A program made the translations under genes and the position numbers. Under the pieces are notes generated by a model, which did not search any database, had not been told where the DNA came from, and saw only the letters and a program-made list of their open reading frames with translations. Shown here one piece after another: positions 11,187 to 54,092 of a DNA stretch of 64,000 bases. The stretch lies in assembly GCF_016026235.1 (NCBI RefSeq), contig NZ_CP065613.1; one strand, given 5' to 3'. Position 1 is the stretch's first letter. The number at the start of each line of letters is the position of its first letter. Source of the DNA: Escherichia coli. Lineage in GTDB: Bacteria; Pseudomonadota; Gammaproteobacteria; Enterobacterales; Enterobacteriaceae.

Positions 11187-12532
11187 AATTTACCCAACGT
11201 CTTAGTCTGCGCGTCAGGCTGACGCTAATCTTTTTAATTCTGGCCTCGGTGACCTGGCTGCTTTCCAGCTTTGTCGCCTGGAAACAAACAACGGATAACG
11301 TCGATGAATTGTTCGACACCCAACTGATGCTGTTTGCCAAGCGGTTAAGTACGCTCGATCTCAACGAAATCAACGCGGCGGATCGCATGGCACAGACGCC
11401 AAATAAATTAAAACACGGTCATGTTGATGACGATGCGCTGACCTTTGCCATCTTTACCCACGACGGCAGAATGGTCCTTAACGATGGCGATAACGGAGAA
11501 GATATTCCTTATAGCTATCAACGGGAAGGTTTTGCTGACGGGCAACTGGTGGGCGATAAAGATCAATGGCGTTTTGTCTGGATGACCTCACCTGATGGCA
11601 AATATCGCATCGTTGTTGGTCAGGAATGGGAATACCGTGAAGACATGGCGCTGGCGATTGTTGCCGGGCAATTGATCCCGTGGCTGGTCGCACTGCCGAT
11701 TATGTTAATCATCATGATGGTACTATTGGGTCGTGAACTCGCTCCGCTGAACAAACTGGCGCTGGCGCTGCGTATGCGTGACCCTGACTCGGAAAAACCA
11801 CTAAACGCGACTGGCGTACCCAGCGAAGTGCGTCCGTTGGTTGAGTCGCTAAATCAACTGTTCGCCCGCACACATGCGATGATGGTTCGTGAACGACGCT
11901 TTACCTCCGACGCAGCTCACGAACTACGTAGCCCGTTAACGGCGCTGAAAGTGCAAACCGAAGTTGCGCAGCTTTCTGACGATGATCCGCAAGCGCGGAA
12001 AAAAGCGCTGCTTCAATTACATTACGGGATCGATCGCGCTACTCGTCTGGTTGATCAACTGCTCACTCTATCGCGGCTGGACTCACTGGATAACCTTCAG
12101 GACGTCGCGGAGATCCCGCTTGAAGATCTCCTGCAATCGTCGGTGATGGATATTTACCACACGGCGCAGCAGGCGAAAATTGACGTGCGACTGACACTCA
12201 ATGCCCACGGCATCAAACGCACCGGACAACCGCTATTGCTAAGTTTGTTGGTGCGAAATTTGCTGGATAACGCCGTGCGCTACAGTCCACAGGGCAGCGT
12301 GGTAGACGTCACGCTGAATGCTGATAACTTCATCGTGAGGGATAACGGCCCCGGTGTGACACCAGAGGCACTGGCGCGAATTGGCGAACGCTTCTATCGC
12401 CCACCCGGACAAACCGCTACCGGCAGCGGGCTTGGGCTATCGATTGTCCAGCGAATCGCCAAATTGCATGGCATGAATGTTGAATTTGGGAATGCGGAAC
12501 AAGGTGGATTTGAGGCGAAGGTAAGCTGGTAA
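11183..12532 (+). CDS. qseC: sensor histidine kinase QseC
   Basis: 449-aa ORF, H-box AAHELRSPL, two TM segments. Confidence 0.93.
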
Positions 12533-24263: not shown

Positions 24264-24378
24264 TTTGATATCCTCACAATACGCTTGTTCGGCGGAGTAA
24301 GAACCCGGATAACAATGATGATGATCATCAGTTATTTTGACGATCTGCCTGAAGGTGAAGATTTATAAGGAGTTGTCG

Positions 24379-51518: not shown

Positions 51519-52022
51519 TCGCCCACGCACCACCAGCGCCTGGTCCAGCTCGCGATACGCTTCAACCAGTTTCTCCAGTGAAACGCGACTTAAACCGCTG
51601 GGATTTGGCAGCACCCAAATCTGCGTCGAACCAATGCTGAGCGTTTGTTTCCCCCACTGTGCACCGCGCTGGCTGAATCCCTGTTCATATGCTTGTTTGC
51701 CCAGAATCGCCAACGCTTGCGGCTGATAATCTTCAATTTTTTCAATCAGCTTACGCCCACCTGCGTGTAGCTCTTGCTTTGAAATTTCATTGGCTTGCAC
51801 CGTTGGACGGTCTACCAGTTTGGTGACGCCACAACGATAATCCAGCAGATGCTGTGCCTCCTGCGGCTTCAACTGACGGTCGGTAAACCCGGCCTGATAT
51901 ATCACCTTCCAGAAGCGATTTGCCGGATGAGCAAAGGGAAAACCAGTCCCGGCGGATGAAAGCCCAGGGTTGATACCGCAAAACACGACCCGTAACCCTG
52001 GAGCCAAAATATCCTCAACCAT
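51516..52022 (-). CDS. mug: G/U mismatch-specific DNA glycosylase
   Basis: 168-aa [23 protein letters not shown]... Confidence 0.95.
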
Positions 52023-52274: not shown

Positions 52275-53039
52275 TTACTTTGCGTGCCAATAGGCCGCTG
52301 CACGAACCCGCTGTGGGTCAAACTGTTCCGTTTCAAAGCGGCGGCTTAAATTCTTAACGACTTTGCCTTCGCCGGTTATCCAGATGAAGTAATCATCGGC
52401 AGGGATTTGCATCTGCGCCAGACGCGCATCTACCGCCTGCTCATCATGTGCCAGCCATTCGATATTAAAACCATCAAGGTGCGCGAGATAATCCTGACAG
52501 GCGTTATCCCGCACGCTAACCAGCGCGCTAACTTGCGGTTTAACGGCAAGTTTGCTCAACGTTTCCAGGCGGCGGCGCAGTGCGGGCATTCCGGATTCAT
52601 CGCAGACATACAGCTGATACGCGTAATCTTCCGGCACCACCAGCGAACCGCGCGGACCTGCCACCGTGAGTTTATCGCCCGGTTGCGCCTGCATTGCCCA
52701 GCTACTGGCGACGCCGTCTTCGTGAATAAAGAAATCAATCGCCAGTTCATGGCGTAGTTCGTCATACAACGGCGTATAGTCACGCGACGGTGGGCGTGGT
52801 CCTTCCGGCCAGACGATGCCCTCTTCCGTTACCGTTGGCGGCACAAAGTGAGCGTCAGGTTGAGGAAAGAAGAGTTTGCTGTGATCGTCAAAGCCGCGCG
52901 ATGTAAAACCGTCCAGCGCCTCGCCGCCAAGGACAATGCGCTGAAAACCGGCGCTGATACGCTCAACGCGTAGCACAGTCAGTTCACGGAAGCGCAGATC
53001 ATTGCGAACGCGCTGCGGGTAGCGGGGGGTGTTATTCAT
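52275..53039 (-). CDS. yqjH: NADPH-dependent ferric-siderophore reductase
   Basis: 254-aa ORF; siderophore-interacting FAD-binding family. Confidence 0.9.
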   Translation of the reverse strand: MNNTPRYPQRVRNDLRFRELTVLRVERISAGFQRIVLGGEALDGFTSRGFDDHSKLFFPQPDAHFVPPTVTEEGIVWPEGPRPPSRDYTPLYDELRHELAIDFFIHEDGVASSWAMQAQPGDKLTVAGPRGSLVVPEDYAYQLYVCDESGMPALRRRLETLSKLAVKPQVSALVSVRDNACQDYLAHLDGFNIEWLAHDEQAVDARLAQMQIPADDYFIWITGEGKVVKNLSRRFETEQFDPQRVRAAAYWHAK

Positions 53040-53091
53040 TGTTATCGCCTTCGTGATGGTAATCAGATATATCTAAATAAAACTCTCAAAT

Positions 53092-53110
53092 GATAATGAT
53101 TGTTAATCAT
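53092..53110. promoter_or_regulatory. Fur box in the yqjH promoter
   Basis: gataatgattgttaatcat versus consensus GATAATGATAATCATTATC. Confidence 0.65.
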
Positions 53111-53180
53111 GATAAATGCAAGCGATTTGTAGAACTGATATATCTGAAGTATGTGAAGGCATTCAGTGCCATAGCAATGC

Positions 53181-53214
53181 TGCCGGATGCGGCGTGAACG
53201 TCTTATCCGGCCTA
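53181..53214. repeat. REP element
   Basis: tgccggatgcggcgtgaacgtcttatccggccta matches the REP consensus. Confidence 0.7.
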
Positions 53215-53315
53215 GATGTGAGGTGCTTCCACGTTTAAAAATCATTTTTGTACTTGCAGTAATGCTCACATCAGATATAAATTAGATATATCTAATCAAG
53301 CAAAAGGAGGCTGAT

Positions 53316-53939
53316 ATGAGCCATCATCACGAAGGGTGTTGTAAACATGAAGGCCAGCCACGCCATGAGGGCTGCTGCAAAGGTGAGAAGTCAGAACACG
53401 AGCACTGCGGACACGGTCACCAGCATGAACACGGTCAATGCTGCGGTGGTCGCCACGGTCGCGGCGGCGGTCGTCGGCAACGTTTCTTTGGTCACGGTGA
53501 ATTGCGTCTGGTGATTCTGGATATTCTCTCGCGCGATGACAGCCACGGTTACGAATTGATTAAAGCGATTGAGAACCTAACCCAGGGGAATTACACCCCA
53601 AGCCCGGGCGTCATCTACCCAACGCTGGATTTTCTGCAGGAGCAGTCGCTGATTACCATCCGCGAAGAGGAAGGTGGTAAGAAGCAGATTGCGCTGACCG
53701 AACAAGGCGCGCAGTGGCTGGAAGAAAACCGCGAACAGGTGGAGATGATTGAAGAACGCATCAAAGCGCGTTGCGTTGGCGCGGCGCTGCGCCAGAACCC
53801 GCAAATGAAGCGGGCGCTGGATAATTTTAAAGCGGTGCTGGATTTACGCGTCAACCAGAGCGATATCAGTGATGCACAAATAAAAAAGATCATTGCGGTG
53901 ATCGACCGCGCCGCTTTTGATATTACGCAACTGGATTAA
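53316..53939 (+). CDS. yqjI: PadR-family nickel-responsive repressor YqjI
   Basis: 207-aa ORF with His/Cys-rich N-terminus and PadR winged helix. Confidence 0.9.
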   Translation: MSHHHEGCCKHEGQPRHEGCCKGEKSEHEHCGHGHQHEHGQCCGGRHGRGGGRRQRFFGHGELRLVILDILSRDDSHGYELIKAIENLTQGNYTPSPGVIYPTLDFLQEQSLITIREEEGGKKQIALTEQGAQWLEENREQVEMIEERIKARCVGAALRQNPQMKRALDNFKAVLDLRVNQSDISDAQIKKIIAVIDRAAFDITQLD

Positions 53940-53968
53940 TCGCCGCATCCGCCAGTGGCGCGGTGCAA

Positions 53969-54061
53969 TTGCCGGATGCGACGCTTGACGCGCCTTATCC
54001 GGCCTACACCCGCTACACACCCCGCAGGCCTGATAAGATGCGCCAGCATCGCATCAGGCAT
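53969..54061. repeat. BIME (pair of inverted REP elements) between yqjI and aer
   Basis: gccggatgcgacgcttgacgcgccttatccggcctac and inverted gcaggcctgataagatgcgccagcatcgcatcaggc. Confidence 0.7.
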
Positions 54062-54092
54062 TGTGCACCAACCGCCGGATCCGGCATACCGA

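Follow-up and report, generated by a model that had tools for sequence, protein, structure and literature searches.

The divergent nfeF-nfeR (yqjH-yqjI) spacer of Escherichia coli: two predicted NfeR dyad operators, a predicted Fur site at nfeF and a non-conserved REP element

Background

The closest described system is the yqjH-yqjI region of E. coli K-12 (Wang, Wu and Outten 2011, J Bacteriol 193:563; Wang et al. 2014, J Bacteriol 196:3199), which is the same locus with the same genes as the one analysed here. As summarised in PMC7981267 with reference to these two studies (Wang 2011, 2014), yqjH is under both Fur and YqjI, and YqjI (now NfeR) represses the adjacent nfeF (yqjH), a repression that is lifted by nickel. 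In Klebsiella, deletion of nfeR raised nfeF expression 85-fold (PMC7981267), and nfeR itself is described in the literature as induced by nickel. The nfeF gene has been placed in the Fur regulon (PMC9508795, PMC9501238), and the title of Wang et al. (2014) refers to communication between YqjI binding sites. Genomic SELEX with the aminopeptidase and DNA-binding protein PepA gave the nfeF/nfeR spacer as its single genomic target (PMC8249747).

The Fur-repressed promoters of fhuA, entC and fepA carry an AT-rich GATAAT-type array on the promoter core of a Fur-regulon gene, and nfeF resembles them in this; unlike their Fur boxes, that of nfeF matches the classical consensus at 12-13/19 positions and shares its promoter with a second metal-specific repressor. 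PadR-family repressors such as PadR and LmrR recognise palindromes in the divergent promoter regions of their own genes. NfeR is like them in its winged-helix domain, its AT-rich dyad operator and the combination of autoregulation with control of a divergent gene, but differs in a predicted metal-binding N-terminal extension rich in His and Cys and in operator units that stand in tandem 11 bp apart.

In K-12, two YqjI sites reportedly lie almost 200 bp apart, the footprint at the yqjI promoter is said to be extended, and the REPs are reportedly dispensable for YqjI regulation. The operator coordinates given below probably correspond to the published YqjI footprints.

Results and discussion

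The locus and its genes

The analysed DNA, called the window throughout, is a stretch of 64 kb from E. coli in which positions 53040-53315 form a 276-bp spacer between the divergent genes nfeF and nfeR (Table 1). An initial annotation of this spacer had listed a Fur box, three copies of a palindrome and a REP element, and all of these motifs are present within 1-2 bp of where it had placed them. Its identification of the genes as yqjH and yqjI was also borne out. RefSeq names them nfeF (formerly yqjH) and nfeR (DNA-binding regulator, formerly yqjI); NfeF matches the Pfam families FAD_binding_9 (1.5e-37) and SIP (8.3e-26), and NfeR carries the PadR winged-helix domain PF03551 at residues 67-136 (E = 2.5e-15; bit score 56.6, cutoff 27). 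As read from the translation, His and Cys are abundant in NfeR residues ~1-45. The spacer segment was found in 5422 of the 5426 complete E. coli genomes.

We read the spacer as the known two-promoter control region of nfeF and nfeR, with two NfeR dyads, Fur acting on nfeF only, the REP as a passenger and a middle palindrome copy that is most likely non-essential, and we put the probability of this reading at roughly 90%. Since dual control by Fur and YqjI has been published (Wang 2011, 2014), the finding is not new. With Fur sensing iron and NfeR sensing nickel at one ferric-reductase promoter, the locus is a textbook-level case of dual metalloregulation. What the present comparison adds is a cross-genus footprint that pins the operator to a 14-bp dyad with tandem units 11 bp apart, the observation that neither the REP nor the spacer length is conserved, and a strain polymorphism where a third site may lie, some strains having GATATATC and others GATATGTC.

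Site I, the Fur box and site II of the window are identical to those of the K-12 region, and the window NfeR is 100% identical to a K-12-like protein. The two regions differ in spacer length (276 bp in the window, 287 bp in K-12), in the number of intact REPs (one versus two), in the middle copy (GATATATC versus GATATGTC), in the distance from site I to site II (219 versus 230 bp) and in a T/G SNP at 53086.

Table 1. Features of the nfeF-nfeR spacer and its flanking genes, in window positions; promoter elements are putative and binding sites predicted.
Feature	Position	Strand	Remarks
nfeF (yqjH) CDS	52275..53039	-	NADPH-dependent ferric-chelate/siderophore reductase; ORF, RefSeq and Pfam
Candidate NfeR/YqjI operator site I, TCAGATATATCTAA	53063..53076		13/14 of dyad; core invariant in 33/33 loci
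Fur box (predicted), two overlapping 7-1-7-like units	53091..53115		TGATAATGATTGTTA at 53091-53105 and TGTTAATCATGATAA at 53101-53115
nfeF -10, CATTAT (putative)	53093..53098	-	Inside Fur box; read from sequence
nfeF -35, TTGCAT (putative)	53116..53121	-	GCAAG block kept across genera
Middle GATATATC copy	53137..53144		About -51 to -58 of putative nfeF promoter; polymorphic
Variable segment	53145..53181		Second, inverted REP in other E. coli haplotypes (alignments)
Intact REP, GCCGGATGCGGCGTGAACGTCTTATCCGGCCTA	53182..53214	+	Hairpin; dispersed in genome; in Escherichia spacers only
Conserved AAAAATCAT block	53237..53245		Upstream of nfeR -35; nfeR-side alignment
nfeR -35, TTGCAG (putative)	53254..53259	+	TTGC kept in nfeR-side alignment
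Site IIa, partial operator unit TCAGATATAAATTA	53271..53284		11 bp upstream of site IIb
nfeR -10, TATAAA (putative)	53276..53281	+	16-bp spacer to -35
Candidate NfeR/YqjI operator site IIb, TTAGATATATCTAA	53282..53295		14/14 of dyad; centred on putative nfeR start
nfeR Shine-Dalgarno, AAGGAGG	53304..53310	+	Ends 5 nt ahead of ATG
nfeR (yqjI) CDS	53316..53939	+	PadR-family repressor with His/Cys-rich N-terminal extension; ORF, RefSeq and Pfam

Two conserved dyads as NfeR operators

The three palindrome copies, which had been placed near 53065, 53137 and 53284, are copies of GATATATC at 53066-53073, 53137-53144 and 53285-53292. A fourth copy, the sole one outside the spacer, lies at 51896 inside mug. 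Shuffled sequences give an expectation of 0.55 copies per 64-kb window, and none of 100 shuffles reached four. Even the spacer's own AT-rich composition predicts a further copy only 0.006-0.008 times (an analytic expectation), hence the clustering of GATATATC in the spacer is not due to chance.

The 8-mer had been proposed as a half-site, a description that needs correction. The longer dyad TTAGATATATCTAA is a perfect 14-bp palindrome, found with no mismatch at 53282-53295 and with one at 53063-53076, while all other matches to it in the window have 3 mismatches. As each conserved copy of the 8-mer forms the core of a complete dyad suited to a PadR-type dimer, the copies at sites I and IIb are predicted full dyad operators and not half-sites. 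The initial annotation made no mention of the partial unit TCAGATATAAATTA at 53271-53284.

Further we compared the spacer across genera. We fetched 32 loci with NfeR relatives; with the window and the RefSeq loci added, 33 loci holding both genes were analysed, from Escherichia, Citrobacter, Enterobacter, Lelliottia, Superficieibacter and Raoultella. The divergent arrangement of nfeF and nfeR is found in all 33, with spacers from ~130 to 287 bp, and in every locus the conserved GATATATC cores number exactly two, an nfeF-proximal and an nfeR-proximal one (33/33). The distance from the nfeF-proximal core to the Fur box block ATGATAATGATT is 22-24 bp in 33/33 loci. On the nfeR side site IIb reads TAGATATATC in 33/33, and a second unit (TTAGATATARNT) stands 11 bp upstream of the dyad in every locus. 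Within Escherichia, the variation falls between the motifs and not inside them. In the nfeF-proximal half, the sequence varies most in the 9-10 bp that separate site I from the Fur box.

The Enterobacter and Lelliottia loci (L015, L017-L023, L025 and L026) have spacers of only ~130-144 bp with back-to-back -35 elements, and they carry three tandem operator units 11 bp apart, CTGAATATATC, TTAGATATAGT and TTAGATATATC. Here the Fur box and the nfeR promoter are close neighbours.

We also considered a conserved helical phase between sites I and II. The distances between the sites are 97, 166-185 and 217-230 bp across genera and share no common phase, and phasing was for this reason dropped as a conserved rule.

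Putative promoters and the control model

We infer both promoters because the GCAAG block on the nfeF side and the TTGC block on the nfeR side are conserved at fixed distances. The 17-bp spacing of the nfeF hexamers is kept in Citrobacter and Enterobacter. Transcription would start near 53086 on the minus strand for nfeF and near 53288 on the plus strand for nfeR. A scan of 52950-53400 for sigma-70 promoter and terminator consensus sequences found none; as both -35 hexamers match TTGACA at only 3/6 positions, which is under the threshold of the scan, we did not count this result against the promoters.

The putative nfeF start at 53086 is a T in the window and a G in most E. coli, and the exact 71-mer 53056-53126 occurs in only 8 complete genomes. 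Upstream of the nfeR -35 by 10-20 bp, Escherichia, Citrobacter and Raoultella share the AAAAATCAT block, a possible UP-like element or binding site for another factor.

With the hexamers assigned from conservation in this way, site I would occupy about +10 to +23 of the predicted nfeF transcript, whereas site II (53271-53295) would cover the -10 and start of nfeR, the -10 hexamer (TATAAA, 53276-53281) being contained in site IIa. The repression by YqjI and Fur and the relief by nickel are taken from the literature, and the positions of the sites relative to the putative promoters suggest how the repression could work. NfeR, as a PadR-type protein, would bind the two conserved dyads, with the core GATATATC within TTAGATATATCTAA. 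At site I, just downstream of the predicted nfeF start, it may repress nfeF by occlusion or as a roadblock, and at site II, made up of a full dyad and a partial unit, it may act on its own gene in either of these ways. Nickel bound through the His/Cys-rich N-terminus would release NfeR, and Fe2+-Fur on the AATGATAATGATTGTTAATCATGATAA block (53091-53115) would add repression by iron at nfeF only. Some long-range cooperation of sites I and II, in line with the title of Wang et al. (2014), would also belong to this model. The REP would only lengthen the spacer.

The Fur box

The initial annotation had called the Fur box near-consensus, which does not hold for the classical model. The Fur-like 19-mer it had pointed to, gataatgattgttaatcat at 53092-53110, matches the 19-bp consensus GATAATGATAATCATTATC at 12/19 positions, or 13/19 on the other strand, and a scan of the whole 64-kb window for GATAATGATAATCATTATC found no site within 3 mismatches. 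Under the 7-1-7 model, TGATAATGATTGTTA matches at 12/14 specified positions, which ties for the best score in the 64-kb window, and the overlapping TGTTAATCATGATAA matches at 11/14.

The best matches to the 19-mer consensus in the window lie at two other places and exceed the score of the nfeF box, namely the interior of qseC (15/19, 11698-11716) and the ygiD-zupT region (14/19, 24308-24329). The match within the qseC coding sequence is probably due to chance.

The case for Fur is made by three observations taken together: the block ATGATAATGATT is exact in 33/33 loci, it overlaps the putative nfeF -10 and the promoter spacer, and the literature places nfeF/yqjH in the Fur regulon (PMC9508795, PMC9501238; title of Wang 2011). 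On this basis we suggest 53091-53115 as the predicted Fur site of nfeF.

Iron and nickel inputs had been proposed to converge on both genes. For yqjH the proposal agrees with the published control by Fur and YqjI. For nfeR the iron part is not supported by the geometry, as the Fur box lies ~175-200 bp upstream of the putative nfeR start and overlaps only the -10 and spacer of nfeF. We therefore hold it improbable that Fur directly represses both promoters. This idea could draw on the Enterobacter loci, where the spacer is ~144 bp and the Fur box ~45 bp from the nfeR -35, and on a weak Fur-like block (AAAATCAT) upstream of the nfeR -35 in the window. On the other hand, the Fur-regulon sources name nfeF and not nfeR (PMC9508795, PMC9501238). 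The weak block, at 53231-53249, was rejected as a second Fur site: by hand alignment it matches at 10/19 positions, which is background, more than 1,600 window positions scoring 10 or higher.

The middle palindrome copy

All three palindrome copies had been taken as candidate YqjI operators. The two outer copies, conserved in 33/33 loci, stand as such, while the candidacy of the middle one is weakened by its flanks and its distribution. Its 14-mer, ACTGATATATCTGA, has 4/14 mismatches to the dyad, with T instead of A or C before the core, and the perfect 8-mer occurs in 3/33 loci, all of them Escherichia. Within E. coli the copy is allelic: K-12-type strains have GATATGTC and strain SCPM has GAAACATC. 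Of 5426 complete E. coli genomes, 979 contain the window's exact 69-mer spanning the copy and 2032 a window-like architecture. Outside these E. coli haplotypes with the intact core, of which there are several, GATATATC is also present at this place in E. albertii and in Escherichia sp. E1V33.

It seems doubtful that NfeR uses this copy, at about -55 of the nfeF promoter, as a third and auxiliary operator that helps to bridge sites I and II. A further perfect match to the core that both conserved operators share would hardly arise by chance (0.006-0.008 expected), and its presence in E. albertii, E1V33 and several E. coli haplotypes suggests that it is probably ancestral in the genus. In 11 of the 28 non-Escherichia loci TTTGATATA, an 8/9 match to the operator half TTAGATATA, lies ~65 bp from site I. 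The centre of the middle copy is 148 bp from site IIb in the window and 159 bp in K-12-type strains, or ~14.1 and 15.1 helical turns, and communication between binding sites is reported in the title of Wang et al. (2014). Against these points, the flanks misfit the dyad and the core is mutated in both the K-12-type (GATATGTC) and the SCPM (GAAACATC) alleles. None of the 28 non-Escherichia loci has the full 8-mer, and 17 of them show decay even of the half-unit. The published K-12 model reportedly has two sites only.

We consider it fairly probable that the middle copy has no NfeR function and represents either AT-rich DNA resembling an UP element or a neutral relic beside the REP-variable segment. 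Its position at -51 to -58 of the putative nfeF promoter is the zone of UP elements, and Citrobacter and Raoultella carry a T-tract and then GATA at the corresponding place, that is, an A-tract at about -40 to -45 on the strand in the direction of transcription. It adjoins the segment that differs most among E. coli haplotypes, some of which carry a second REP there, and it varies within the species. What speaks against a copy without function is that the perfect 8-mer is expected by chance fewer than 0.01 times and has been kept in three Escherichia species or lineages.

Our preferred reading is that the middle GATATATC is most likely non-essential. It is the only part of the spacer that is not clearly covered by known facts, and the GATATATC/GATATGTC polymorphism could matter only for the communication between NfeR sites or for differences among strains in the response to nickel or iron. 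To our knowledge, K-12 is the strain of all published NfeR footprints. Further, we would speculate, with even less assurance than for the third operator as such, that in strains keeping the middle core it serves as an auxiliary operator mediating long-range communication between sites I and II, and that K-12 lost the core by an A-to-G change. In that case a model with two sites would fall short of describing regulation in a large part of the species.

The REP element and spacer haplotypes

The REP reported by the initial annotation was recovered at 53182-53214. It forms a hairpin with a centroid energy of -18.6 kcal/mol and is dispersed genome-wide. A 44-bp query around it matched at 22 or more places, in most cases at least 40, in each of 5425 out of 5426 E. 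coli genomes (counted places from 22 to at least 70). In sequence, hairpin, extragenic position, genome dispersal and its use as an IS1397 target (in IAI39) it is like other E. coli REP/BIME elements and shows no notable difference from them; its partner REP is absent or decayed in this strain.

Its inclusion in the regulatory architecture finds less support. In the 33-locus comparison no REP was found in the spacers of Citrobacter, Enterobacter, Lelliottia, Raoultella and Superficieibacter, five genera that keep the operators and the Fur box. E. coli haplotypes have one or two REPs, with spacers of 274-277 or 287 bp. In IAI39 (L038, NC_011750.1, 740-1000) an IS1397-family element sits inside the REP directly after GCCGGATGCGGCGTG, corresponding to ~53196 in the window. 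As the element is confined to Escherichia, varies in number by haplotype and is itself interrupted by IS1397 in IAI39, we read the REP as a lineage-specific passenger outside the conserved control design.

A functional REP, acting as an IHF or gyrase site, as an insulator or as a spacer setting the helical phase of sites I and II, is in our judgement very unlikely. The two main E. coli haplotypes do differ by 11 bp, about one helical turn, so that sites I and II are 219 or 230 bp apart (20.9 versus 21.9 turns), and the PepA genomic SELEX peak falls in the nfeF/nfeR spacer (PMC8249747). However, both operators and the Fur box persist in the five genera without the REP, the site-to-site distances across genera have no common phase, the number of REPs varies by strain and the insertion in IAI39 breaks the element. 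Mutation of the REPs also reportedly leaves YqjI regulation unaffected.

The IS1397 insertion in IAI39 parts the nfeF side of the spacer, with its promoter, site I and the Fur box, from the nfeR side with site II and its own promoter. It thereby offers a natural experiment on the communication reported for the two NfeR sites.

An sRNA or riboswitch in the spacer was also considered. The Rfam scan of the spacer gave no family above its gathering score, and this reading was therefore dropped; the only matches were sub-threshold ones to naRNA4 (REP325-derived), among them one that spans 53132-53212 (minus strand; 34.1 bits, gathering score 59.5).

At least four spacer haplotypes occur in E. coli, as seen when segment 53145-53181 is compared in L001, L036 and L039. 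One has a single REP with GATATATC, another two REPs with GATATGTC (the K-12 type), a third two REPs, GATATATC and a site I that is a perfect palindrome, and a fourth one REP with GAAACATC. The window spacer looks like a mosaic of these haplotypes, judging from the alignments, and its segment 53145-53181, which lies within the sub-threshold naRNA4 match, may hold a decayed remnant of the second REP. A further REP/BIME-like cluster lies at 53947-54086, between nfeR and aer, where the best sub-threshold Rfam naRNA4 match reaches 48.7 bits against 59.5.
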